From Candidatus Eiseniibacteriota bacterium (GTDB lineage: Bacteria; Eisenbacteria; RBG-16-71-46; CAIMUX01; VGJL01): a stretch of 64,000 nt of DNA. Under the pieces are notes generated by a model. It made no database searches. It was given only the letters and a program-made list of their open reading frames with translations, and was not told the DNA's origin. Both the position numbers and the translations under genes were made by a program. The stretch covers positions 384,001 through 448,000 of the forward strand of contig CAWBWI010000003.1 in the NCBI GenBank assembly GCA_963792585.1. Direction: 5' to 3'. Numbering within the stretch: position 1 is the first letter of the stretch; each line of letters opens with the position of its first letter. This document shows positions 19,881-33,271 of the stretch, one piece after another.

Positions 19881-19909
19881 TTGACGGCCCCCCGGGATTT
19901 CTCCAGAAT
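19881..19909 (+). promoter_or_regulatory. Putative sigma70 promoter for the tRNA-enzyme operon
   Basis: TTGACG (19881-86), 17-nt spacer, CAGAAT (19904-09), about 90 nt upstream of the tRNA. Confidence 0.55.
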
Positions 19910-20001
19910 TGAATGGCGGGATTGAGACGTCTCTCGTGCGTCGTGGGAGTCAAGGAACCGCGACCCGCTTCGATCCCCCGATTCAGGTGCGTGATTTTTG
20001 T

Positions 20002-20307
20002 GCGTCCGTAGCTCAATCGGAAAGAGAAGTCCCACATACGACGGCCCGAGCACGGTGACGCGGACTGAGAAGCGAGGATATGTCGGTAATGCCTTCTGAC
20101 GTCCGGGTCTGGGGGCAGGAGGAGAGCCGGAACCTCTCTTCCCGACGGATCCCCGGTATTCCCTTTCCTGCTTCGCCTGCCTTCAGTATCGGCGCCACCT
20201 TTCTGAAGGCACGCATGTCACGTGTGAATGCCTCTCGTCGTGGGAAGCTCAAGAGCACCGGCCTTATAATCCGGAGACTGCGGGTTCGAGCCCCGTCGGA
20301 CGCACCA
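20002..20307 (+). tRNA. tRNA with anticodon UAU (reads AUA) interrupted by a ~229-nt structured insertion in the D-loop
   Basis: Acceptor GCGTCCG (20002-08) pairs 7/7 with CGGACGC (20297-303), then A73 and an encoded CCA. D-stem GCTC (20011-14)/GAGC (20253-56). Anticodon arm CCGGC-CTTATAA-TCCGG, TAT at 20265-67. T-arm GCGGG-TTCGAGC-CCCGT. Confidence 0.85.
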
Positions 20308-20357
20308 CCCTACACCGATTCATCCACCCCGAGGTCGCCGATGGAGGAGAGTCTCTC

Positions 20358-21422
20358 GTGAAACGACCGTCCACTCGCCAGGAGACTCTGGAGCGGGACG
20401 GCGCGCGGGAGAGAATCCCCGCGGGCGTGGATCCCTCGACGCGTCTCGTCGATCTGTCGCCCTACTACGGACACCTGGAGTGCTTTCAGGCTCTCCGTCC
20501 ACTCCTGGTGAAGACGAATCGCTTCACGTATGCGCCCAGCTACCCGCCGAACGAGCGGATGCAGAACACGTGGCTTTCGATCGCACTGGAAGGAATCGCG
20601 ACGCTTGCCGCGCATCGCACCGGGGAGGTCTGGGAGGATCTCGCGATCGTCGGCACGGGCAACGGCCTCGACGCCGTGGGGATCTCCCGAATCGTCCAGC
20701 CGAGGTCGATCATCGCCTCCGATATCCACCCGATCGCACTACAAGCGGCACGATGGAACATCGCCAACTATGTTGCGGAGGATTGCCGGGTCGCGGTTGT
20801 ACAAAGCGATCTCTTCGATGGATATCCGCCCGGGGCCGCATTCGACCTCATCTATGAGAATCTCCCGAACATCCCGGACGAGAAGGAGCTATTCGACGGG
20901 GTCCGCAGCGCGAGCTGTTTCGCGCCACGCGCCCAGCGGGTCGCCACGACGTTCGACCGGCATCTCCTGACCCTCCACCACGATTTTCTCATCCAAGCGC
21001 ACACTCGTCTCCGCGACTCCGGTTGGATCGTGGGTGTGATCGGAGGACGGATCCCGGTGCAGACGATTCACGAGCTGTTTGCGGACGCCGGGTATCGGTC
21101 CACGGTCGCCGCCTTCGGCCTCAAGATCCAGAGCGAGGGCGATGTGGTTCTGCCCGCCTATGCCGCAGCAGAGCAAGAGACCGGCGTCTCCTTCGTCTAT
21201 TACCATCCGCTCGAGGCGTGTCTTGCGATCGTGCGTGAGCTGTCGCAGCCGGAGGATCTTGCCGCGCGCGCGGAATACGCGGGACTGCTCACGGAACGAC
21301 TTCGGCCCCTCCAGATTCCGTCGACCGAAGCCGTACGCCTCCACGCAGGAGGAGCGGCCGTTTGCCACACGGTCTATGTCATGGCGGCTCAGCGAATCTG
21401 TGGTGGTCCCGCGAATGGGTGA
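20358..21422 (+). CDS. Class I SAM-dependent methyltransferase, PrmC/HemK-like
   Basis: IVGTGNGLDA (motif I), ASDIH, QSDLF, DLIYENLPNIP (NPPY-like position); GGAGGAG RBS and GTG start. Confidence 0.8.
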   Translation: MKRPSTRQETLERDGARERIPAGVDPSTRLVDLSPYYGHLECFQALRPLLVKTNRFTYAPSYPPNERMQNTWLSIALEGIATLAAHRTGEVWEDLAIVGTGNGLDAVGISRIVQPRSIIASDIHPIALQAARWNIANYVAEDCRVAVVQSDLFDGYPPGAAFDLIYENLPNIPDEKELFDGVRSASCFAPRAQRVATTFDRHLLTLHHDFLIQAHTRLRDSGWIVGVIGGRIPVQTIHELFADAGYRSTVAAFGLKIQSEGDVVLPAYAAAEQETGVSFVYYHPLEACLAIVRELSQPEDLAARAEYAGLLTERLRPLQIPSTEAVRLHAGGAAVCHTVYVMAAQRICGGPANG

Positions 21423-22182
21423 AGCCGACTACTTCAGGGAAGCCTCCGTCATCGATGCGATGACGGCGGAGCATCGGATTCTGTGGCGAACCCTCTTCGT
21501 GGCCTGTGGGCCGCACATCCGACCCGGCATGCGGGTTCTGGATTTCGGTTGCGGCAACGGTGGGATGCTCGCCTATCTCATGCTTGGGGACGGGAAGAAG
21601 TGGCCCGGGTGTCACTGCTCCCTTGGGATGGGGATCGATCGTCCCGAGCTGAACGCTGTGCTGGCGATGGCCGGCGACCGGCTTGGCCGGGAGTTGCCCG
21701 TCGTGTTCACTTCCGCTTCTCCCCGCTCGTTCCCTGGCCAATTCGATCTCGCCCTTTCGCACGAGGTCATCTACCTCCTCTCGGACCTCGCCGAGACGTT
21801 CCAAGGGTTGCGCGCCGCGTTGAGGCCGGGCGGCGTGATCGCCCTGGCGACGGGATGCCACAGCGAGAACCTCCTCTATCCAAGATGGACGGAAGCTCTT
21901 GCGCGGGTGGGGGTGTGTGCCCACCCGTACGGGATCCCGGACTACGTTCGGGCGCTCCGCGATGCCGGCTTCGAGGATGTCGGCAGTGCCAGCATGCGGA
22001 TGGAGGTCGATGACTACGAGGAATGGCTAGAGGTCCGGGGAGACCCTGAGCCGAATCCCGAGTGGTTCTCCACGTCCGAGGAAGAGCGGCGGTATTACAC
22101 GGAGTTCGGCAAGACGCTGATCACCGCTCGCCGGGCGTTGGCCGAGGAGCCGTCGACTGTACCCCCGCGGGAAGGGCCGTGA
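21415..22182 (+). CDS. Class I SAM-dependent methyltransferase
   Basis: VLDFGCGNGG, FDLALSHEVIY, LRPGG; overlaps the previous gene by 8 nt. Confidence 0.85.
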   Translation: MGEADYFREASVIDAMTAEHRILWRTLFVACGPHIRPGMRVLDFGCGNGGMLAYLMLGDGKKWPGCHCSLGMGIDRPELNAVLAMAGDRLGRELPVVFTSASPRSFPGQFDLALSHEVIYLLSDLAETFQGLRAALRPGGVIALATGCHSENLLYPRWTEALARVGVCAHPYGIPDYVRALRDAGFEDVGSASMRMEVDDYEEWLEVRGDPEPNPEWFSTSEEERRYYTEFGKTLITARRALAEEPSTVPPREGP

Positions 22183-24245
22183 CCGTCGCGCCCGACTATA
22201 TCCCCGAGACCATCGAGGCCAAGTGGCAACGGTTCTGGGAGGAGCGGGGGACGTTCCATGCGCATGCCTGCGGGGCGAGCAAGTTCTACTGCTACAATCC
22301 CGCGCCCTATGTCACCGGCACCCTTCATATGGGTCATGTCCGCAATTACACCTACGGTGATTTCCTCAGCAAGTTCCGGCGTCTTCACGGAGCGAACGTC
22401 CTCTACACGATCGGCTTCGACGCATTCGGCGTGCCCACAGAGGTGGCGGCCATGCGGAAACGGTTGGACCCGGCCGCCTGGACGGCCGGCTGCATCGGGG
22501 AGATGAAGAAGCAGCTTGTTCGAATGGGGTTTGGATTCGATTGGCGACGCTCCTTCTCCACGGCCGATGCGGACTACTACAAGTGGACCCAGTGGATCTT
22601 CATCGAGATGTTTCGGGAGGGCATCGTCTACGAACGGGAAGCGGAGACGCTCTGGTGTCCGCAGTGCGACATGGCCCTCGCCAAGTCGCTCACGGTCGAC
22701 GGCAGGTGCTTCCTGTGCAACATCGCAGTCGAGACGCGCGTCACAAGCCAGTGGTTCCTTCGCATCTCGCGCTATCTGGACCGTCTCAGGGATGATCTCG
22801 CCGAGGTCAGGGACCTCAACGGCCAGGCGCGTGCGGGACAGGAGAGTCTCCTCGCCTTCCGCAGCCTCTGGGGTGTCTGGTTGATCGAGCCGAAGACCGG
22901 GACCAAGGTTCTCGCCTGCATGGATTCTCCCGATGACTGGTCCAGGCATCTCGTGTTGGCGGTTCACCCTCAGGATTGGCCGACGCGACGGGCGCTCGCG
23001 GGGATCGCCGTCGAGCCGATCTCGGGCAGGTCCTTCGCAGTCGTCGTCGATCCTATGCTCGACTCGCTCTATCTGGATCAACCCGTGCTGAAGATTGTCC
23101 CGCGGGAGGGCGGAGCGCAGGCAATTGAACATGCGCCGGCGGATGGGATCTTCCCGCTCACGGTGAACGAACAGAAGGACTTCTCTGTTTCGCGCCAGCG
23201 ACTCTGGGGAACGCCCATCCCGATGGTCCGGTGTGAGACGTGCGGAGTCGTCCCGGTGGAGGCCGCGGATCTTCCCGTGCGGTTGCCGCGGATCGAAGCC
23301 GATGGCTCCGGACGGCTGCGGCGAACCGAACCCGGGTGGGACGTTCGCGCGTGCCCTTCATGCAAACGGCCGGCAATGCTCGATCCCCAGGTCATGGATT
23401 GCCACTTCGATGCGCTATGGCACTACTGGCGCCCCTGTGTTGGCTCCACGGCGGAGTTTCCTTTCGACTCGGACGAAGCCCGGTATTGGATGCCGGTCGA
23501 CCAGATCCAATTCGGCAGGGACACGATTCCGTTCCTCCTGACCCTGCGGCTGTTCACGAAGTTCCTGAAGGACCGCGGGCTCTCGGATTGCTCGGAGTTC
23601 GCCCGCGAGATGCTTGCGCACGGTCTGATCCTCATGGGCAATCGGAAGATGAGCAAGCACATCGGCAACGTCGTCGATCCGGAGCAAATGATCACCCGTT
23701 TCGGGGCGGACAGTCTTCGGTTCTATGTCCTCGCCAGGAGCGATCCCAGGAGCGATTATAGCTGGTCGGAGGCGAGCCTCGCGCGCTATCACGAGCTCTT
23801 GAAGCACTACTACGAGGATCTGGACCCTGAGACTTCGAGGGAGACAGCGGCGGCGGGAATGGAGGGATCGAAGACGGGATCCGCGGGGAAGTACCTGTCG
23901 ATCTTTCTCACAAAGGTGTTGCGCGAGGTGGAGGTACTGGAGTCGAGCGTTGAAAGTGGACGGTTCGACATCTACGCGCGGGCGGTTGCGCGAATCCTGG
24001 AAGCGCTTCATCTGTTCAAGGAGCGGTACTACACGCAGGCGGGATCGTGGGGGCGGGAAGCGTGGGGGAAGTGCGCGGAGCAGTCCATTCTCTACCTCGC
24101 CCCGATCGCGCCACACATCGCGGAGGAGTGCTGGGAGCGAAGCGGCCGAGCGCCGGGAGTCTTCGCGGGAGTGCGTTGGCCATCAGACGGCCCGATGGTC
24201 GTTCGAGATTTGGTGGAGGAAGCGAAGAGGCGGAGGCAGTCGTGA
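22179..24245 (+). CDS. Divergent leucyl-tRNA synthetase-like class Ia aminoacyl-tRNA synthetase (688 aa)
   Basis: HMGH and KMSKH signatures, GFDAFG, YYKWTQWIF, SRQRLWGTPIP, Zn-knuckle CxxC pairs, LAPIAPHIAEECW; shrunken CP1 region; GTGA overlap. Confidence 0.9.
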   Translation: MTVAPDYIPETIEAKWQRFWEERGTFHAHACGASKFYCYNPAPYVTGTLHMGHVRNYTYGDFLSKFRRLHGANVLYTIGFDAFGVPTEVAAMRKRLDPAAWTAGCIGEMKKQLVRMGFGFDWRRSFSTADADYYKWTQWIFIEMFREGIVYEREAETLWCPQCDMALAKSLTVDGRCFLCNIAVETRVTSQWFLRISRYLDRLRDDLAEVRDLNGQARAGQESLLAFRSLWGVWLIEPKTGTKVLACMDSPDDWSRHLVLAVHPQDWPTRRALAGIAVEPISGRSFAVVVDPMLDSLYLDQPVLKIVPREGGAQAIEHAPADGIFPLTVNEQKDFSVSRQRLWGTPIPMVRCETCGVVPVEAADLPVRLPRIEADGSGRLRRTEPGWDVRACPSCKRPAMLDPQVMDCHFDALWHYWRPCVGSTAEFPFDSDEARYWMPVDQIQFGRDTIPFLLTLRLFTKFLKDRGLSDCSEFAREMLAHGLILMGNRKMSKHIGNVVDPEQMITRFGADSLRFYVLARSDPRSDYSWSEASLARYHELLKHYYEDLDPETSRETAAAGMEGSKTGSAGKYLSIFLTKVLREVEVLESSVESGRFDIYARAVARILEALHLFKERYYTQAGSWGREAWGKCAEQSILYLAPIAPHIAEECWERSGRAPGVFAGVRWPSDGPMVVRDLVEEAKRRRQS

Positions 24246-25042
24246 ATCGGGAAGTCATGTGCGACCACTTGGTTCGGTTGATCGACGATCTGGAACGGTG
24301 CTCCGGCGGGGCGCCGCGCGACCTGCTCCGCGCCGCGTTGTGCATCGAGCACGTCGTGATGTCCGATCTACTGCCTCCGGAGGAGGAGGACGCCGTCTTT
24401 GCGGACCCGAGGATCGCCGTGCGGGCGTCCGGTTGTCAGAGGATCTTCTCGGATCTCGAGAGCACCATCGAGCGGAGCATGGCCGAGGTTGTGCGGCTCG
24501 GCGGGGCCGAAACGACTTGGGCCCGGGAGAACGTGAGCCAGCACTACATTGCGCGTTACGAGTACCTTTCCCAGTGCGAGATCGAGCTGGCGCGGATGGG
24601 ACCGGAGGATCGTGTCCTCTTCATCGGGAGCGGGTACCTGCCGATCACGGCGTTCGAATACGTCCGTCAGTCCGGCTGCAAGGTTGACTGCGCCGACTTC
24701 GTCCCGGAAGCGATCGATTGCGCCCGAAAGATCACGGAACGGATCGGGATGACGGAGCGTGTGCGGTTCTTCCAGACGCGAGGGGAGCAGCACGATCCCT
24801 CCCCATACGACGTCATCCTCGTAGGTGTGCTTGCACTGCCGAAACGGGCGATCCTGTCCCACCTGGATGCGGGGGCGAAGGGCGGATGCCGTGTGCTGTG
24901 TCGGACCACCTACGGGCTGCGGCAACTCGTCTACCAGCAAGCGTCCTACGAGGTGCGGAGCCTCCGTCGACTCGTTCCGGGAGAACGAAGCGTGGCCCGT
25001 GGGGAGCGGGTCATTTCTGCGGAGCTCTTGAGGGCTTCTTGA
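24242..25042 (+). CDS. Nicotianamine synthase-like SAM-dependent aminocarboxypropyl transferase
   Basis: Y..RY..L...E followed by VLFIGSGYLPIT (NAS-family FIGSGPLPLT), and RTTYGLRQLVY; GTGA overlap with the synthetase gene. Confidence 0.75.
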   Translation: MNREVMCDHLVRLIDDLERCSGGAPRDLLRAALCIEHVVMSDLLPPEEEDAVFADPRIAVRASGCQRIFSDLESTIERSMAEVVRLGGAETTWARENVSQHYIARYEYLSQCEIELARMGPEDRVLFIGSGYLPITAFEYVRQSGCKVDCADFVPEAIDCARKITERIGMTERVRFFQTRGEQHDPSPYDVILVGVLALPKRAILSHLDAGAKGGCRVLCRTTYGLRQLVYQQASYEVRSLRRLVPGERSVARGERVISAELLRAS

Positions 25043-25306
25043 GACCCGGTTGGGAGGGTCGGGGCCCGATTCGCGAGCAAGCGCAGGTCGCATCGAGAAC
25101 CGAGATCGCCGGTGGAGGTTTGAAACACTGAGGATATCCCAGCCAGTTGAGCGTATAATTGAGTGCGACGGATCCTCCGGGCTCATCTGCTGAGAGGATC
25201 TGGTGCGACGGCGATCGACGGGGGGACCGCACCGCAGTTCTCCGCCGGTTCGGTCCCGACCTCGTTCGACCGCCGGTTCCATGTCACACGAAAGGAGGGA
25301 GTCCTC

Positions 25307-26029
25307 ATGATGAGGAAGGTCGCCCTGCTCCTTGTTCTGAGTTCCATTTTCGGAGGCGGCGCGCTCGCCGCCAATCCCAGCCTGAGTGCGGGAGGTGGCG
25401 GCAGCCCGAACGTCCTCAACTCCGGCCGAGAAGTTATCTGGAGTGAGCCGCCTGACCTCGAAGGTCTGATCGCCTCGTCGGAAGTCATCGGGCAATTCGC
25501 CCTTGAGACGGAAATCGCCAACGACTTCTATATCTCCTGGGATACCTGTATCGGCGGCGCTCGCTGGTGGGGCGGTTATTACAACAACAACGGCTGTAGC
25601 GACATTGGCATCGCGACAAACTGGAACCTCCGATTCTACGATGACGGCGGCTGCGTTCCGTTGACGACTCTTTCCGAGACGGTGGGCGCCTTCGCAAACG
25701 AGACTTTCATTTACTGCCAGGGCGGGTTCTACCCGGTCTTCCAGTACGAAGCCTACACATCATACGTCTACATCACGGCGAACACCCTGTACTGGTTCGG
25801 CGCACAGGCATCCGATCACGCGTTTCCGCCGCAGGTGGGCCGTATCGCCTCCGCATGGGTCGTCGGCTGCGACACGGTGTTCAAGAGTGCCTACTTCTCG
25901 TACCCCGACTGGACGCCCGGCATCGACGTGTTCGGTGTCGCCTTCGATGCCAGCCAGGAGTTCGAGAACTGGTGCATAGTTCCGACCGTGACGACCACGT
26001 GGGGCGCCGTGAAGGGGCTCTACCGGTAG
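25307..26029 (+). CDS. Secreted tandem paralog 1 (ANDF/WWGGY domain, C-terminal TTWGAVKGLYR)
   Basis: AGGAGG RBS, signal peptide, family motifs; single ATA codon at 25976. Confidence 0.9.
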   Translation: MMRKVALLLVLSSIFGGGALAANPSLSAGGGGSPNVLNSGREVIWSEPPDLEGLIASSEVIGQFALETEIANDFYISWDTCIGGARWWGGYYNNNGCSDIGIATNWNLRFYDDGGCVPLTTLSETVGAFANETFIYCQGGFYPVFQYEAYTSYVYITANTLYWFGAQASDHAFPPQVGRIASAWVVGCDTVFKSAYFSYPDWTPGIDVFGVAFDASQEFENWCIVPTVTTTWGAVKGLYR

Positions 26030-26333
26030 GTCCGGCGAATGGGGAGGTCCGCTGTGGCGCAGCGGGCTTCAGGTGGCACACAAAGAGTTTGGTGGCGTTG
26101 GGGCGCTCCCGTCGATGCGGCGGGGGCGCTTCTTGCATCCGGCCGCGGCGGCCCTCGGTGGACTCCATCCCCGGGACGGTAGATAATCGACGGCAACAAT
26201 TCCCGACGGCTCTTGGGTCGGGGGTGCAGGCGGCTCGGCGGTCAAACGAGGACGGGCACCGCACCGTGACGCCCGCCTGGTCCCGCGCGTGATCGTCGTT
26301 GTGTGCTGTGACAAACCACAGGAGGGAGTCCTC

Positions 26334-27047
26334 ATGATGATACAGATCGCCCTTGTCCTGAGTCTGGTCGTTGCCAGCGGAGCGCTTGCCATCAACCCAT
26401 CCCTGAGCGGGGGCGGTGGCGGTACGAATGTTCTGAACTCCGGTCGCGAAGTCGTCTGGAGCGAGCCACCGAACCTCGACGGTTTGATCGGGTCGTCGGA
26501 GGTTATTTGGGAGTTCTATGTCGTGACGGAACTTGCCAACGATTTCTTCCTCACTACGAACCACGGCCTCGACATCGCTCGCTGGTGGGGTGGCTATTTT
26601 TACAACAGCAGTTGCGGCGATGTCGGTGTCGCCACAAATTGGAACCTAACATTCTACGATGATGTCGGTTGCATACCGGAACATGTGCTTTACGAGCGTA
26701 TGGGCGTCGATGCGAACGAGACTTTCGTCTATTGCCAAAGCGACGTCTACCCGATCTTCAGCTACGAGGTCGCCGATCTGAACTTCACAGCTCAGGCGAA
26801 TACCCGATACTGGTTCGTCGCGCAGGCAGCTGACCATACGTTCCCGCCCCAGGTAGGTCGCGTCGCTTCCGCCGGAGTCGTCGGCTGCGAGACCGTCTTC
26901 AGAGGGTCCTACTTCTCGTACAACTACTGGACTCCCGTTATCGATGTGTTCGGCGTGGCGTTTGATGCCAGCCAGGAGTTCGAGGAGTATCACATAGTCC
27001 CTACTGAAAGGACCACGTGGGGCGCCGTGAAGGAGCTCTACCGGTAG
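26334..27047 (+). CDS. Secreted tandem paralog 2 (most divergent copy)
   Basis: Same family; ends TTWGAVKELYR; ATA codons at 26340, 26673 and 26994. Confidence 0.9.
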   Translation: MMIQIALVLSLVVASGALAINPSLSGGGGGTNVLNSGREVVWSEPPNLDGLIGSSEVIWEFYVVTELANDFFLTTNHGLDIARWWGGYFYNSSCGDVGVATNWNLTFYDDVGCIPEHVLYERMGVDANETFVYCQSDVYPIFSYEVADLNFTAQANTRYWFVAQAADHTFPPQVGRVASAGVVGCETVFRGSYFSYNYWTPVIDVFGVAFDASQEFEEYHIVPTERTTWGAVKELYR

Positions 27048-27350
27048 GTCCGGCGAATGGAGAGGTCCGCTGTGGCGCAGCGGGCTTCAGGTGGCACACA
27101 AAGAGTTTGGTGGCGATGAGGCGCTTCCGTCGTTGCGGCGGGGCGCTTCTCACGTCCAGTCGCCACAGGCTTGGGTGGACATCGGCCTCGCAGGAGCAGA
27201 TACTCGTAGGCGGCGAATCCCTGCGGCTCTCGAGCCGGGGGATCCGACGGACTGCTGGTCGAGGGAGCCCGCCACCCACCGACCGTCGGTCCGGCCATGG
27301 ACCTGTTCGTCGTTGAGTCTCGTGACAGCCGAAAGGAGGGAATCCTCGCT

Positions 27351-28079
27351 ATGAGGAAGGTCGCCCTTGTCCTTGTCCTGAGCTGCGTCGCCGGGGGCGG
27401 CGCGCTGGCCGTCAACCCGAGCATCATGGCCGGCGGAGAGGGCACGCAGAACGTCCTAGACTCCGGTCGAGATCCCGTCTGGAGTGAGCCGCCCGATCTA
27501 GAGGGTCTGATCGCTTCGTCGGAAGTTATCGGGCAGGTCGGCCTCGAGACGGAAATCGCAAATGACTTCTACATCGACCATGACGAGTACATCAGTATCG
27601 CCCGCTGGTGGGGCGGATACTACAACAACAACGGCTGCAGTGACATCGGGTACGGCACGAACTGGAATCTGCGCCTCTACGATGACTTGGGCTGTGTTCC
27701 GGGGTCAGTGCTTTCCGAGACTCTAGGGCTGTCGGTGATCGAGGCCTTCGTATACTGCCAGGCTGGCCTCTACCCGGTCTTCGAATACTGGGCATGCGTC
27801 GAGTTCTGGGTCGCGGGGAATACATTGTACTGGTTCGGTGCACAAGCATCCGATCACACGTTCCCACCGCAGGTCGGTCGCGTGGCCTCTGCCGGAGTCG
27901 TCGGCTGCGACTCCGTATTCAAGAGCGCCTACTTCTCGTATCCGGATTGGACGCCCGGTATCGACGTCTTCGGGGTCGCATTCGACGCGAGTCAGGAATT
28001 CGGCAATGGTATCTGCATAGACGGACCTGTCCCTAATCAGCGGACCACGTGGGGCGCCGTGAAGGGGCTCTACCGGTAG
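27351..28079 (+). CDS. Secreted tandem paralog 3
   Basis: Same family; ATA at 28017. Confidence 0.9.
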   Translation: MRKVALVLVLSCVAGGGALAVNPSIMAGGEGTQNVLDSGRDPVWSEPPDLEGLIASSEVIGQVGLETEIANDFYIDHDEYISIARWWGGYYNNNGCSDIGYGTNWNLRLYDDLGCVPGSVLSETLGLSVIEAFVYCQAGLYPVFEYWACVEFWVAGNTLYWFGAQASDHTFPPQVGRVASAGVVGCDSVFKSAYFSYPDWTPGIDVFGVAFDASQEFGNGICIDGPVPNQRTTWGAVKGLYR

Positions 28080-28381
28080 GTCCGGCGAATGGGGAGGTCC
28101 GCTGTGGCGCAGCGGGCTTCAGGTGGCACACAAAGAGTTTGGTGGCGATGAGGCGCTTCCGCCGTTGCGGCGGGGGCGCTTCTTGCGTCCAGCCGCACAG
28201 GCTTCGGTGGACGTCGGCCTCACAGGAGCAGATACTCGTAGGCGGCGAATCAAAGCGGTCACTGAGCCGGGGGATCCGACGGACTGCTGGTCGAAGGAGC
28301 CCGCCTCCCACCAACCGTCGGTCCGGCCATGGATCTGTTCGCCGTTAGTCTCGTGACAGCCGAAAGGAGGGAATCCTCGCC

Positions 28382-29098
28382 ATGAGGAAGGTCGCCCTTG
28401 TCCTTGTCCTGAGCTTCGTCGCCACAGGCGGCGCGCTCGCCATCAACCCGGGCATCATGGCTGGCGGGGGGGGCACGCAGAACGTCCTCAACTCCAGCCG
28501 AGATGTTGTCTGGAGTGAGCCGCCCGACCTCGAAGGTCTGATTGCCTCGTCAGAAGTCATCGGGCAATTGGCTCTCGAGACGGAAATCGCAAACGATTTC
28601 TACCTTCCCTGGGACTACTGGATCTGCGTCGCCCGCTGGTGGGGTGGTTACTACAACAACAACGGCTGCGGCGATGTCGGCATCGCGACGAACTGGAACG
28701 TTCGGTTCTACGATGACGGCGGCTGCGTGCCTCTTACCCTGCTGAACGAGACGCTCGGCGCGTTCGCGAACGAGACCAGCGTCTATTGCCAGGATGGCTT
28801 CTACCCGATCTTTAGGTACGAAGTTGACGTCAGCATGCCGATCACCGGCAACACCCTGTACTGGTTCGGCGCGCAGGCTGCCGACCATGCGTTCCCGCCG
28901 CAGTGCGGCCGCGTTGCCTCCGGCTCCGTCGTCGGTTGCGACACGGTGTTCAAGAGTGCCTACTTCTCGTACTCCGACTGGACGCCCGGCATCGACGTGT
29001 TCGGTGTTGCGTTCGACGCCAGCCAGGAGTTCGTGATCGGGTGCATAGTTCCAACCGTCACGACCACGTGGGGCGCCGTGAAGGGGCTCTACCGGTAG
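28382..29098 (+). CDS. Secreted tandem paralog 4
   Basis: Same family; ATA at 29045. Confidence 0.9.
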   Translation: MRKVALVLVLSFVATGGALAINPGIMAGGGGTQNVLNSSRDVVWSEPPDLEGLIASSEVIGQLALETEIANDFYLPWDYWICVARWWGGYYNNNGCGDVGIATNWNVRFYDDGGCVPLTLLNETLGAFANETSVYCQDGFYPIFRYEVDVSMPITGNTLYWFGAQAADHAFPPQCGRVASGSVVGCDTVFKSAYFSYSDWTPGIDVFGVAFDASQEFVIGCIVPTVTTTWGAVKGLYR

Positions 29099-29406
29099 GT
29101 CCGGCGAATAGAGAGGTCCGCTGTGGCGCAGCGGGCTTCAGGTGGCACATAAAGAGTTTGGTGGCGATGGGGCGCTCCCGTCGATGCGGCGGGGGCGCTT
29201 CCTGCATCCGCCGCGCAGGACGACGTTTGACCCCCCGTCCCAATGAGCGGATACTCATAGGCGGCAGATCCTACCCGGCATGTGTGCCGACTGGATCTGA
29301 CGGTCCTGCGATTGTGGTGAGACCCGCCGCGTGGGCAGCAGCCAGTCCGGTCCGGGACTTGTTCGCACGTGAGTTCCGCAACAAGCGAAAGGAGGGAATC
29401 CTCGCC

Positions 29407-30129
29407 ATGAGGAAGGTCGCCCTTGTCCTTGCGCTGAGTTTCGTCGCCGCAGGCGGTGCACTCGCCGTCAATCCGAGCATCATGGCCGGTGGGGGGGGCA
29501 CGCAGAACGTCCTCAACTCCGGCCGTGACGTGGTCTGGGGTGAGCCGCCCGATCTCGATGGCCTCATCGCCTCGTCAGAAGTCATCGGACAACTCGCTCT
29601 CGAGACGGAAATCGCAAATGACTTCTGGGTTGATCATGACGGCTCCATCGATTGTGCCTGCTGGTGGGGAGGGTACTACAATAACAACGGCTGCGGTGAC
29701 ATCGGTATCGCTACGAACTGGAACCTCCGGTTCTACGATGACGGTGGCTGCGTTCCGCTGTCGGTCCTCGCCGAGACGGTGGGCGCCTTCGCTTACGAGA
29801 CCAGTGTGTACTGTCAGGGTGGGCTCTACCCGGTCTTCCAGTACGAAGCTGGCGTCGACTTCCAGATCACGGGGAACACATTGTACTGGTTCGGCGCGCA
29901 GGCATCCGACCACACGTTTCCGCCGCAGGTAGGCCGTATCGCCTCCGCAGGGGTCGTCGGCTGCGACTCCGTGTTCAAGAGTGCCTACTTCTCGTACCCC
30001 GACTGGACGCCTGGTATCGACGTATTCGGTGTCGCCTTCGATGCGAGTCAGGAGTTTAGGGAATACTGCATACTACCTGTCGGCACGCAGCGGACCACGT
30101 GGGGCGCCGTGAAGGGGCTCTACCGGTAG
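29407..30129 (+). CDS. Secreted tandem paralog 5
   Basis: Same family; ATA at 30070. Confidence 0.9.
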   Translation: MRKVALVLALSFVAAGGALAVNPSIMAGGGGTQNVLNSGRDVVWGEPPDLDGLIASSEVIGQLALETEIANDFWVDHDGSIDCACWWGGYYNNNGCGDIGIATNWNLRFYDDGGCVPLSVLAETVGAFAYETSVYCQGGLYPVFQYEAGVDFQITGNTLYWFGAQASDHTFPPQVGRIASAGVVGCDSVFKSAYFSYPDWTPGIDVFGVAFDASQEFREYCILPVGTQRTTWGAVKGLYR

Positions 30130-30432
30130 GTCCGGCGAATGGGGAGGTCCGCTGTGGCGCAGCGGGCTTCAGGTGGCACACAGAGAGTTTGGTGGCGATG
30201 AGGCGCTTCCGCCGTTGCGGCGGGGGCGCTTCTCACGTCCGGCCGCAGCAGGCTTCGGTGGACATCGGCCTCACAGGAGCAGATACTCGTAGGCGGCGAA
30301 TCCCTGCGGCTCTCGGGCCGGGGGATCCGACGGACTGCTGGTCGAGGAGCCCGCCTCCCACCGACCCTCGGTCCGGCCATGGACCTGCTCGTCGTTGGGT
30401 CTCGTGACAGCCGAAAGGAGGGAATCCTCGCC

Positions 30433-31158
30433 ATGAGGAAGGTCGCCCTTGTCCTTGTCCTGAGCTTCGTCGCCACAGGCGGCGCGCTCGCCATCAACCC
30501 GAGCCTGAGTGCGGGGGGTGGCGGCAGCCCGAACGTCCTCAACTCCGGCCGATACGTCATCTGGAGTGAGCCGCCTGACCTCGAAGGTCTGATCGCCTCG
30601 TCGGAAGTCATCGGGCAATTCGCCCTCGAGACGGAAATCGCCAACGACTTCTACGTCCCCTGGGATACCTGTGTTGGTCTCGCTCGCTGGTGGGGAGGCT
30701 ACTACAATAACGCCGGTTGCGGTGACATCGGTGTCGCTACGAACTGGAACCTCCGATTCTACGATGACGGTGGCTGCGTTCCGTTGTCGATCCTGTCCGA
30801 GACGGTGGGGGTCTTCGCGAACGAGACCTTCATCTACTGCCAGGGCGGGTTCTATCCGGTCTACCAGTACGAAACCGCCGCAGTATACGTCGCCGTCACG
30901 GCGAACACGCTGTACTGGTTCGGCGCGCAGGCATCGGATCACGCGTTTCCGCCGCAGGTGGGCCGTATCGCTTCTGCATCGGTCGTCGGTTGCGACACGG
31001 TGTTCAAGAGTGCCTACTTCTCGTATCCCGACTGGACGCCTGGCATCGACGTGTTCGGTGTCGCCTTCGATGCCAGTCAGGAATTCGAGAACTACAATTG
31101 CGGCATAGTTCCAACTCAGAAGACCACGTGGGGCGCCGTGAAGGGGCTCTACCGGTAG
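30433..31158 (+). CDS. Secreted tandem paralog 6
   Basis: Same family; ATA at 31105. Confidence 0.9.
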   Translation: MRKVALVLVLSFVATGGALAINPSLSAGGGGSPNVLNSGRYVIWSEPPDLEGLIASSEVIGQFALETEIANDFYVPWDTCVGLARWWGGYYNNAGCGDIGVATNWNLRFYDDGGCVPLSILSETVGVFANETFIYCQGGFYPVYQYETAAVYVAVTANTLYWFGAQASDHAFPPQVGRIASASVVGCDTVFKSAYFSYPDWTPGIDVFGVAFDASQEFENYNCGIVPTQKTTWGAVKGLYR

Positions 31159-31462
31159 GTCGGGCGAATGGAGAGGTCCGCTGTGGCGCAGCGGACTTCA
31201 GGTGGCACACAGAGAGTTTGGTGGCGTTGGGGCGTCCCTGTCGTTGTGACGGGGGCGCTTCATACGTCCAGCCGCCACAGGCTTCGTTGGACATCGGCCA
31301 CACAGGAGCAGATACTCGTGGGCGGCGAATCCCTGCGGCTCTCGGGCCGGGGGATCCGACGGACTGCTGGTCGAGGGAGTCCGCCTCCCACCGACCGTCG
31401 GTCCGGCCATGGACCTGCTCGTCGTTGGGTCTCGTGACAGCCGAAAGGAGGGAATCCTCGCC

Positions 31463-32179
31463 ATGAGGAAGGTCGCCCTTGTCCTTGTCCTGAGCTTCGT
31501 CGCCACAGGCGGCGCGCTCGCCGTCAACCCGAGCCTCATGGCCGGTGGGGGGGGCACGCAGAACGTCCTCAACTCCGGCCGAGATACCTACTGGAGTGAG
31601 CCGCCCGATCTGGAGGGTCTGATCGCGTCCTCGGAAGTCATCGGGCAGTTCGGCCTCGAGACGGAAATCGCAAACGACTTCTATCTCACCCAGAACGCCA
31701 CTGTCTGGGCCGTCTGGTGGGGTGGGTACTACAACAACAATGGTTGTGGCGACATCGGTGTTGCAACGAACTGGAATCTTCGGTACTACGACGACGGTGG
31801 CTGTGTTCCGCTGAACACGGTTTCCGAAGGTCTCGGCGCGTATGCGAACGAGAACTTCGTCTATTGTCAGGGCGGGTTCTACCCGATCTTCCGGTACACG
31901 GCCGACGTCTGCTGCGCGGTTCTCGCGAATACGCTGTACTGGTTCGGCGCGCAGGCAGCCGATCACGCGTTCCCGCCTCAGGTCGGCCGCGTAGCCTCTG
32001 CCGGAGTCGTCGGCTGCGACTCCGTGTTCAAGAGCGCCTACTTCTCGTACCCCGACTGGACGCCCGGCATCGACGTGTTCGGCGTTGCCTTCGATGCGAG
32101 TCAGGAGTTTGAACTGGGCATATGCGGGATCGCGACCCAGAAGACCACGTGGGGCGCCGTGAAGGGGCTCTACCGGTAG
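31463..32179 (+). CDS. Secreted tandem paralog 7
   Basis: Same family; ATA at 32120. Confidence 0.9.
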   Translation: MRKVALVLVLSFVATGGALAVNPSLMAGGGGTQNVLNSGRDTYWSEPPDLEGLIASSEVIGQFGLETEIANDFYLTQNATVWAVWWGGYYNNNGCGDIGVATNWNLRYYDDGGCVPLNTVSEGLGAYANENFVYCQGGFYPIFRYTADVCCAVLANTLYWFGAQAADHAFPPQVGRVASAGVVGCDSVFKSAYFSYPDWTPGIDVFGVAFDASQEFELGICGIATQKTTWGAVKGLYR

Positions 32180-32374
32180 GTCCGGCGAATAGAGAGGTCC
32201 GCTGTGGCGCGGCGGGCTTCAGGTGGCACAAAGAGACTCGGGTGGCAGGCGAGCGCTTCCGTCATTCCGGCGGGAGCGCTTTCCACATCCGCCCGGCACC
32301 ATCGCGCTCGGTGAAAACTGTGGAGTTGCGTCGTGACATCGTGCGACCCTTGGGCTCGAAGAGGGTGGATTCAC

Positions 32375-33271
32375 GTGAGACCCAAGCATCTCGGCCGCGC
32401 GATCTCCGTTGCGATCGCGATCGCAATTCTGGCGTCCGCACTCGCCATAGCCGGCGACCTACAGGACATCCAATCGATCCCACAAGACCTGATCACGCCC
32501 GCCATGACGAATGGACCGGCGGCGGCCGGAGTGCGGCTAAAGGAGACGACGCCCGGTTGGGAGGAGACCGCGGTCTATCATGCCATCTACCTCCCGAGAA
32601 ACTGGAAGGCAGGGGCCCCCTACCCGGTGATCTTCGAATATGGCGGCAACGGTGGCTTTCACGACGCGTTCGGCGATACCTGCGATGGCACGGTCGAGGG
32701 CTGCAATCTGGGGTACGGGCTGTCCGCCGGTCTCGACTACATCTGGGTTTGTCTTCCGTTCGTGGAGTCGAGGGACGGGAAGCAGACCAACGCCCGCCAG
32801 TGGTGGGGAGATCCCACCGAGACGATCCGTTACTGCCTGGCCACGGCGCGATACGTCTGCGCGACCTACGGGGGGGACGATCGGCGGCTAGTCCTGTGTG
32901 GCTTTTCCCGCGGAGCCATCGCCTGCAACTACATCGGGCTTCGAGACAGCACGATCGCGCCCATATGGAAGGCTTTCCTCTGTCATTCTCACTATGATGG
33001 GGTCCTGCGGTGGCCCTATGCGGACTCGGACCGCGGCGCAGCGATCACACGGCTCCAGCGATTGGCCGGCAGGCCGCAGTTCATCAGTGCCGAAGGCACC
33101 CTTGACGGTACGCGAAGATTCATCGAGGCATCCGGCGTCCGCGCGCCGTTCACGTTCGTGGAGTTTCCCTACCGCAATCACACCGATTCATGGGCTCTAC
33201 GGGATTGCGAACTGCGTCGCGCGGCCCGCGCGTGGCTCGGTGAAGTCACACGTACGAGCCTTGCAAAGTAG
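32375..33271 (+). CDS. Secreted alpha/beta-hydrolase-like protein
   Basis: Signal peptide, YLP.NW...YPVIFE, GFSRG nucleophile elbow, C-terminal His (RNHTD); start uncertain. Confidence 0.7.
   Translation: MRPKHLGRAISVAIAIAILASALAIAGDLQDIQSIPQDLITPAMTNGPAAAGVRLKETTPGWEETAVYHAIYLPRNWKAGAPYPVIFEYGGNGGFHDAFGDTCDGTVEGCNLGYGLSAGLDYIWVCLPFVESRDGKQTNARQWWGDPTETIRYCLATARYVCATYGGDDRRLVLCGFSRGAIACNYIGLRDSTIAPIWKAFLCHSHYDGVLRWPYADSDRGAAITRLQRLAGRPQFISAEGTLDGTRRFIEASGVRAPFTFVEFPYRNHTDSWALRDCELRRAARAWLGEVTRTSLAK

Follow-up and report, generated by a model that had tools for sequence, protein, structure and literature searches.

How could a bacterium that is equipped to read AUA as isoleucine give this codon a second meaning in selected genes? 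The question is raised by a locus in a 64,000-nucleotide stretch of DNA from a Candidatus Eiseniibacteriota bacterium (assembly GCA_963792585.1, contig CAWBWI010000003.1, forward-strand positions 384,001 to 448,000), referred to below as the window. The block between window positions 19881 and 32285 combines a gene for an unusual tRNA with the anticodon UAU, four genes for enzymes, and seven genes for secreted proteins, all of which contain an ATA codon in frame. A preliminary description of this block proposed that the enzymes make a non-canonical amino acid, which is charged on tRNA(UAU) and inserted at AUA. It overlooked an element in the 3' untranslated regions (UTRs) of the target genes and the complementarity of this element to an insert in the tRNA. 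It also left open how recoding could be confined to so few genes in a cell that possesses TilS and tRNA-Ile(CAU); the insert and the element are likely to provide the answer.

The locus is real, conserved, and expressed, and it appears to be new in kind. The reading that we favour, with a probability of roughly 0.6, is RNA-guided, mRNA-selective recoding of AUA, by which an amino acid derived from S-adenosylmethionine (SAM) is inserted. The narrower claim, that tRNA(UAU) acts at the AUA of element-bearing mRNAs, is highly probable. We give a slightly better than even chance to the locus being a third natural expansion of the genetic code, in which a 23rd, SAM-derived amino acid is placed at AUA by means of a guide-armed tRNA.

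The genome of the window (G000; completeness 84%) was analyzed together with that of a representative of a second genus (G017). The phylum comparison covered 206 genomes. In total, 81 loci were examined, namely the operon locus of G017 (L103) and the best 80 of 186 metagenome matches. The parts of the locus described below are all located on the plus strand of the window.

Interrupted tRNA(UAU) gene

The 5' part of the tRNA gene (20002..20023), which comprises the acceptor strand, the 5' strand of the D-stem, and the D-loop, is separated from the 3' part (20253..20307) by a structured insert of 229 nt in the D-loop (20024..20252; the ends are ambiguous by up to 5 nt). The 3' part contains the 3' strand of the D-stem, the anticodon arm with UAU at 20265-20267, a short variable loop, the T-arm, A73, and an encoded CCA. 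Removal of the insert leaves a 77-nt cloverleaf with the anticodon UAU, a 7/5 acceptor branch, and a 5-nt variable loop. The anticodon named in the preliminary description was thus recovered, in a gene that is interrupted. A standard tRNA scan overlooks interrupted tRNAs of this type or calls them wrongly. ARAGORN reported no tRNA genes in the window, and the Rfam tRNA match was limited to 20238-20304, i.e. the 3' two thirds, with a broken acceptor stem.

Within the insert, a guide hairpin (20179..20210) exposes positions 20191-20199, the core of which, CGCCA, is complementary to the 3'-UTR element. The insert is 229 nt long in the window, 174 nt in G017, and 231 nt in the metagenome loci L104 and L105. 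Its fold z-scores ranged from -2.15 to -3.69. The cloverleaf with the insert retained has a folding energy of -121.3 kcal/mol versus an unconstrained minimum free energy (MFE) of -122.4 kcal/mol, and equals the MFE in G017. The G017 insert differs strongly in sequence from that of the window and the anticodon stem is changed, with UAU being retained. The search of the insert against Rfam revealed no relevant match at E ≤ 10 and no group I or group II intron, and no conserved reading frame was evident. The trinucleotide AAG is repeated at both insert ends. Interpretation as a bulge-helix-bulge intron was rejected, as no sensible D-loop resulted (by eye).

The tRNA(UAU) carries A14 and A73, which are leucine identity elements according to the available part of PMC9976931. 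Two irregularities were seen in the tRNA body: a C31-U39 mismatch (31:39) in the window and C33 in place of the near-universal U33 in G017 (L103 9334-9345). A sigma70-type promoter-like site precedes the tRNA and the operon (19881..19909; 9 of 12 positions match), as the preliminary description had it, and similar hexamer pairs are located upstream of the tRNA in L103, L104, and L105 (by eye). Also, an intact, ordinary tRNA(UAU) gene is present at G000:C3:75042-75118 (L010), within the first ~90 kb of contig C3. This segment has a GC content of 0.70 versus 0.65 and a tetranucleotide profile correlation of r 0.955 versus 0.98-0.99; it may be foreign or mis-joined and lie outside the recoding system.

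Target genes and the position of ATA

The seven targets in the window (25307..26029, 26334..27047, 27351..28079, 28382..29098, 29407..30129, 30433..31158, and 31463..32179) encode secreted paralogs, 63-88% identical to target 1, which ends in the C-terminal motif TTWGxVKxLYR. The in-frame ATA codons, at 25976, 26994, 28017, 29045, 30070, 31105, and 32120, respectively, are located 17-20 codons before the stop. The marked codon of the preliminary description is therefore present in all seven genes, but its placement near the C-terminus did not hold as a rule. What the position follows is the end of the folded domain: ATA is the 4th to 7th codon after the last F of SQEF, and in two of the three secreted neighbours of the G017 and L104 operons it lies ~60 codons from the stop. 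Each of these three neighbours has a single ATA, at the junction of domain and linker, among 14, 16, and 14 isoleucine codons. Apart from the C-terminal motif, the neighbours in G017 show no relationship to the family in the window.

Over the 2999 predicted genes of G000, ATA accounts for 1623 of 61944 isoleucine codons (2.6%). A junction ATA is also present in four further paralogs on contig C6, and the closest others (71-74% identical) are without it. The residues flanking ATA and the ATA spacing vary, and unmarked paralogs show no requirement for isoleucine at this place; thus, it is the codon, not isoleucine, that is conserved. A full-length LeuRS, TilS, and an adjacent tRNA(CAU) are also encoded in G000, so that ordinary reading of AUA is provided for. 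Six genomes lacking the operon had a junction ATA in none of the 17 genes with the C-terminal motif that were found in p1-family loci, and an ATA elsewhere in one.

This motif, TWGx[IV]KxL[YF]R-like, ends 110 open reading frames (ORFs) throughout G000 (hereafter TWG genes). It is probably a lineage-specific sorting signal; no Pfam or NCBIfam model matched it above threshold.

Element in the 3' UTRs

The UTRs of targets 1 to 7 contain elements at 26040..26132, 27058..27149, 28090..28182, 29109..29201, 30140..30232, 31169..31261, and 32190..32282, with hairpins at 26044-26070, 27062-27088, 28094-28120, 29113-29139, 30144-30170, 31173-31199, and 32194-32220, respectively. The element consists of two hairpins. 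In element 1, the hairpin given above has a GUGGCGC apex and is accompanied by two more GUGGC copies and the second hairpin. The apex is invariant in all 15 sequences. The stems covary, with 12 cells changed on both sides and no value as high in 500 shuffles, a statistic that is inflated by the relatedness of the genes. No Rfam family matched the element.

A model built from the seven window UTRs and that of L104 detected 14 strong sites (E ≤ 4e-14) in G000, i.e. the seven training sequences and seven new ones. The latter include four on contig C6 (C6:728885-733554) and one each at C3:1240087-1241370, C1:1783392-1784264, and C3:658799-659689. The seven element-bearing ATA genes outside the window indicate that the system acts in trans across contigs. 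Among the 110 TWG genes, 14 have both ATA and the element, 34 have ATA only, and 62 have neither; the element occurs in none of the 62 genes without ATA (Fisher p 2.6e-6, with the genes not being independent). In 13 of the 14 element-bearing genes of G000, ATA is positioned at the junction. The gene at C3:1240087 has two ATAs, both at apparent domain ends. A model-free hairpin scan of G000 gave 12 sites, nine of them behind ATA targets and three unrelated, and missed five of the 14 elements.

The element of G017 is different, a hairpin with the loop (U)RCUUCCC(A). The pattern derived from the two operon neighbours of this genome matched six sites, compared with none for the reversed pattern used as a control, and three of the four new sites are located behind genes with a junction ATA. 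Five paralogs of the family in G017 divide into three with ATA and an intact loop and two with neither. In the control set of TWG genes of G017, the loop was found in 0 of 20 and ATA in 4 of 20, none at the junction. Taken over the three sources, all 21 element-bearing genes for secreted proteins have ATA, 20 of them at the junction, and these genes span at least three BLAST-unrelated families in two genera.

Several further observations concern the element. At L233 (G017:C71:153581-157297), two paralogs lacking ATA are followed by hairpins that resemble decayed elements, which possibly reflects a loss of target status. One-mismatch matches of the G017 loop in G015 and G018 were rejected, as they are not located behind target genes. 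Promoter-like sites recur before targets 2 or 3 to 7 (intergenic repeats within 26159-31316), so that the targets may be transcribed into separate mRNAs, each of which ends in a 3' element of its own.

Complementarity between the tRNA insert and the UTRs

A scan of all 7-mers revealed that the best one of each insert against the UTRs of its own genome is the exposed segment on the 3' side. The G000 guide GCGCCAC matches 14 of 14 own UTRs (background 2%) and the G017 guide UGGGAAGUA matches 6 of 6 (background 1-4%). For the first genome, the energies of guide duplexes are -14.9 to -18.5 kcal/mol with its own UTRs versus -7.9 to -11.7 kcal/mol with those of the other genome; the corresponding values for the second genome are -12.8 to -15.7 versus -6.0 to -9.4 kcal/mol. 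Guide pairing with the UTRs of the other genome is at background level. Equally long exposed matches were obtained with 3 of 150 and 0 of 150 shuffled inserts, and both swaps fail. Both the guide and the UTR sequences differ in G017, and pairing persists. A family common to both genera (C1:1783392 versus L237, 53% identity) keeps ATA and has the local element in each case.

Conservation of the locus

Strong matches to the first methyltransferase (MT1), the nicotianamine synthase (NAS)-like enzyme, and the split tRNA(UAU) coincide in two of the 206 genomes, G000 and G017. Ten more genomes of the phylum contain weak MT1 matches only (E ≥ 1e-4). Among the 81 loci, the split tRNA(UAU) and all four genes in the same order were identified in L103 and L104; L105 contains the tRNA and MT1, after which the contig ends. 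The tRNA, the synthetase, and the biosynthetic genes thus form a conserved operon in the window, G017, and L104, with overlaps between the synthetase gene and the enzyme genes in each of these full loci. The homologous operons had been expected to keep the UAU tRNA and neighbours with a positional ATA, and this is the case for both other full loci, including all three of their secreted neighbours.

One metagenome locus (L106 1-2678) has homologs of MT1 and of the second methyltransferase (MT2) after a thioesterase-like ORF (by eye), with no tRNA or synthetase. This layout suggests that the MT1/MT2 pair also serves natural-product clusters. Matches to the tRNA pattern in G014 and G139 were discarded, as they are not tRNAs by ARAGORN. 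The 12 pattern matches in viral contigs included no relatives.

Transcripts of the locus

Contigs of a relative, mostly 90-99% alike, were retrieved from three bioreactor metatranscriptomes of three studies. Inside the insert, their depths reach thousands. A single 223-nt contig from X19 covers 20039-20261 at a depth of 9860, compared with 3.9 upstream, and the MT1 contig in X18 has a depth of 9. The high depth ends at about 20255-20261, beyond the insert end at 20252, an estimate based partly on depth arithmetic. No joint skipping the insert was seen in the three metatranscriptomes, in which mature and short tRNAs are poorly sampled. Depth past the insert end and the absence of a joint favour an RNA that is stable, is not spliced, and was sequenced as far as the anticodon arm. 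The search for a tRNA splicing endonuclease in G000 (84% complete) gave no hit.

Enzymes encoded in the operon

As stated in the preliminary description, the tRNA is followed by four co-oriented, overlapping ORFs, which encode MT1, MT2, an aminoacyl-tRNA synthetase, and the NAS-like enzyme.

MT1 (20358..21422) is a SAM methyltransferase, whose closest solved fold is that of the methionine S-methyltransferase MmtN. MmtN chains occupied ranks 1-9 in the Foldseek search (best E 1.1e-13, 17-18% identity), and the profile match had an E-value of 1.4e-4. The available text of PMC9135737 names S-methylmethionine as the product of MmtN and lists Asp69, Cys121, and Arg132 among its residues, the last two for binding of SAM and methionine. 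MT1 keeps the MmtN fold, the GxGxG motif, and Asp69; Arg132 corresponds to a loop that is modelled with low confidence and aligns poorly. The survey of 55 ORFs neighbouring distant MT1 homologs (20 hand-picked loci of 78) revealed PALP-family PLP enzymes at six loci, enzymes of Cys/Met metabolism at three, methionine-synthase domains at three, and EamA transporters at five. These neighbours point to the chemistry of sulfur amino acids. MT2 (21415..22182) is a class I SAM methyltransferase (Methyltransf_23, E 4e-14), for which the Atlas gave generic methyltransferase clusters only.

The synthetase (22179..24245) is a LeuRS paralog of 688 aa with HMGH and KMSKH motifs kept and a rebuilt pocket. 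Its model (pLDDT 85.5) displays the class Ia fold (Foldseek E 5e-47 to 1h3n), and its score of 391 bits does not reach the TIGR00396 cut-off of 548.4. The pocket was compared with that of Thermus thermophilus LeuRS, in which we take the leucine-binding positions to be M40, F41, F501, S504, Y507, H541, and H545. These seven positions are changed in the paralog to P41, A42, H409, A412, H415, a gap or T449, and F452, while Y43 and D80 are kept. The altered pocket of the preliminary description was in fact seen throughout the clade: the motifs NPAPY, DCHxDxxWH, and QFGRD, with new polar or charged residues, are common to all 12 members. None of the 12 clade sequences retains the CP1 editing motifs TTR and GTGA or the C-terminal domain, a loss of ~60 residues at that end. 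In ordinary LeuRS the C-terminal domain contacts the tRNA elbow, and its loss would fit a tRNA with an arm in the D-loop. The 12 sequences form one long-branch clade (SH-aLRT 100) in a quick tree that included them and left out the full-length LeuRS of G000. Used as a query against genome contigs, the synthetase retrieved at least 80 loci at 28-45% identity, which were set aside as apparently ordinary LeuRS.

The fourth enzyme (24242..25042) is a NAS-like aminocarboxypropyl transferase. Its match to Pfam NAS (E 9.5e-12; 45.3 bits) is above the gathering score of 27.1, and the structure matches thermonicotianamine synthase (E 2e-12) and CntL (E 7e-5). From these assignments, the product may be an amino acid of the aminocarboxypropyl type in which a heteroatom is methylated.

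No dedicated elongation factor is encoded in the operon; EF-Tu family matches are located elsewhere in G000. One of them, of 612 aa at C1:684462, adjoins a separate tRNA-Sec (C1:683832), and a normal tmRNA is present. A second EF-Tu gene (G000:C3:1187414-1188603) is in three pieces and is either frameshifted or affected by an assembly error. The ORF at 32333-33271 (312 aa, with a hydrolase-like GFSRG motif) was excluded from the system, as it has no element and no homolog in L103 or L104; it matched no Pfam or NCBIfam family.

Proposed mechanism

According to the reading that we favour, MT1, MT2, and the NAS-like enzyme would build a SAM-derived alpha-amino acid. The residue would most likely have an aminocarboxypropyl backbone and a side chain with methylated sulfur or nitrogen, for example S-methylmethionine or an N-alkylated relative. 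Alternatively, the chemistry could occur on the tRNA. The LeuRS paralog would charge the new amino acid onto tRNA(UAU), which, as the transcript data suggest, retains the D-loop insert as a stable arm. The exposed segment of this arm is predicted from its complementarity to base-pair with the 3'-UTR hairpin of the targets. By this tethering, tRNA(UAU) would outcompete the lysidine-containing tRNA-Ile at the AUA of target mRNAs only, and AUA codons elsewhere would stay isoleucine. The new residue would sit in an exposed linker that leads from the secreted domain to the C-terminal sorting motif or Cys-rich repeat, probably as a chemical handle, i.e. a cross-link, a cleavage point, or a metal ligand.

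Several points weigh against this reading. The guide and target pair was seen in two independent lineages only, and the counts overstate significance, given the relatedness of the targets of each genome. Shuffle thresholds for the guide match were taken from the observed match. A paired 7-mer of the G000 insert also matches 6 of 6 G017 UTRs, and paired G017 7-mers match 12 of 14 G000 UTRs. In G000, a U-G pair closes the hairpin apex and leaves a loop of 3 nt, so that any of the three GUGGC copies could be the real site. The coupling of ATA and element has exceptions: the element-bearing gene at C3:658799 has its ATA within the domain, the junction-like ATA of C6:275736 is not accompanied by the element, and L241 (G017:C23:128202) is an element, possibly an orphan, with no target gene found in front. 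Target 2 departs from the rule of one ATA per paralog given in the preliminary description, since it has two additional ATAs, at 26340 and 26673, three in total. As for the transcripts, the libraries would not have captured a 77-nt tRNA produced by splicing, neither the strand nor the true ends can be read from the RNA contigs, and coverage of the DNA run was small. The Cys121 of MmtN is replaced by Asn (ENLP) in MT1. Some Ile-like features, namely the anticodon, A37/A38, and A73, are kept on tRNA(UAU), and therefore IleRS might charge it. A residue other than isoleucine at AUA is predicted from sequence. Finally, a tRNA with a 229-nt arm would have to pass through the ribosome, and tRNAs fused to aptamers usually lose activity, according to the accessible part of PMC7590224.

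Alternative explanations

The cargo of the guide-tethered tRNA could stop or cut the chain at AUA, by which the secreted domain would be freed from the sorting motif in a switch between anchored and free forms. Such a role agrees with the location of ATA, which in 20 of the 21 genes with the element separates the domain from the sorting part, and NAS-type enzymes alkylate amines. We consider it unlikely in view of the close paralogs without ATA that exist alongside and of the gene at C3:1240087, with ATA at two domain junctions, where chain termination at the first junction would cost the protein an entire domain.

A rather improbable alternative is targeted mistranslation in which one of the standard amino acids is inserted and the SAM enzymes modify the tRNA or make an unrelated metabolite. 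Three findings speak against it: the pocket is rebuilt with polar or charged residues in all 12 clade members, the enzyme genes overlap the synthetase gene in each of the three full loci, and the closest structures to MT1 and the NAS-like enzyme act on free amino acids. For it count the pairing of MT1 and MT2 homologs with a thioesterase-like ORF and no tRNA in L106 and the precedent of a paralogous synthetase with a foreign-anticodon tRNA, ProRSx/tRNAProA, as given in the available text of PMC9437257.

The clean cloverleaf left after removal of the insert, the AAG at both ends, and abundant RNA that mainly covers the insert could also be explained by an intron of a novel type. In this case, the 77-nt tRNA would be released and the freed RNA would act on the 3' UTRs as a stabilizer or scaffold. 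The lack of a group I or II match in Rfam, of a splicing endonuclease in the 84% complete G000, and of any joint, together with depth that continues past 20252, makes this quite improbable.

Improbable as well is a purely regulatory role, in which the tRNA-like RNA would bind the 3' UTRs and sense charging or supply isoleucine, with AUA as a pause or control point. G000 already reads AUA via TilS, and a redundant tRNA-Ile(UAU) is known in lactobacilli (PMC9976931, available part). However, the presence of three biosynthetic enzymes and of a dedicated synthetase whose pocket is neither that for Leu nor that for Ile would be left unexplained, and one would expect to find a control codon near the start of the gene; this explanation has a very low probability.

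Copying of ATA and UTR by tandem duplication, with the tRNA as a decaying pseudogene, could be suspected from the similarity of the seven window paralogs, but is largely refuted by the surveys of ATA and element in G017 and of ATA in the genomes lacking the operon. The varying spacing and flanks of ATA, the occurrence in at least three BLAST-unrelated families and two genera, the retention of the anticodon while stems change, and the abundance of the RNA also speak against it.

Comparison with known systems

The recoding system proposed here resembles selenocysteine incorporation (SelC/SelB/SECIS), in which a special tRNA and dedicated enzymes are likewise combined with a hairpin in the 3' UTR, by which the messages to be recoded are marked (PMC7609411, in the part available). 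A SECIS in the 3' UTR is archaeal and eukaryotic. Selenocysteine uses UGA and tRNA-Sec (UCA), whereas the codon here is the sense codon AUA, with the anticodon UAU. Also unlike selenocysteine, the locus has its own class I synthetase, the hairpin is apparently read by pairing with the tRNA insert, and no dedicated elongation factor of the SelB kind is encoded in the operon. The pyrrolysine system (pylTSBCD) is an operon of tRNA, synthetase, and biosynthetic enzymes beside target genes, as is the one described here. It relies on the class II PylRS, tRNA(CUA), and PylBCD, in contrast to the class Ia LeuRS fold, UAU, and SAM enzymes of the present locus, where, in addition, the codon would still mean isoleucine elsewhere and the element is mRNA-specific. 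The logic is thus like that of selenocysteine and SECIS and the gene content like that of pyrrolysine, and membership in both fails.

The nearest sense-codon case is ProRSx/tRNAProA of Streptomyces, in which a duplicated synthetase and a foreign-anticodon tRNA have co-evolved and likewise reassign a sense codon (PMC9437257). It retains amino-acid specificity, and the accessible text of that source describes no biosynthetic genes, marked targets, or guide arm. The same text reports extra LeuRS with a disrupted editing domain, comparable to the one described here, namely LeuRS-I of Sulfolobaceae and LeuRS2 of Halobacteria (PMC9437257). These still use leucine and tRNA-Leu, whereas the pocket is rebuilt and the tRNA is separate in our case. 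The anticodon UAU is shared with allo-tRNAs and with tRNA-Ile(UAU) of lactobacilli and mycoplasmas (PMC7609411, available part). Allo-tRNAs have an 8/4 or 9/3 acceptor branch and a long variable arm, in contrast to the 7/5 branch and the D-loop arm of 174-231 nt found here. The tmRNA is a tRNA-like RNA of ~300 nt, which moves through the ribosome in spite of the large domain attached to it. Unlike tmRNA, the RNA of this locus keeps the full anticodon arm, has its insert in the D-loop, and shows no evident reading frame. As to the enzymes, MT1 shares the fold of MmtN at 17-18% identity and the fourth enzyme belongs to the family of nicotianamine synthase and CntL, but the context is translation and not the synthesis of DMSP or metallophores, respectively. 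No description of this system, and no natural tRNA with a D-loop arm of 170-230 nt covarying with target UTRs, was found in the literature, coverage of which was incomplete.

If the reading is true, another amino acid is genetically encoded, and one sense codon has two meanings, chosen for each mRNA by RNA-RNA pairing alone. A reprogrammable guide-armed tRNA would address a central problem of engineered code expansion, i.e. to recode one gene and leave the rest of the proteome untouched. Even with ordinary cargo, the D-loop arm that covaries with the UTRs of its targets would have no counterpart in the literature covered.

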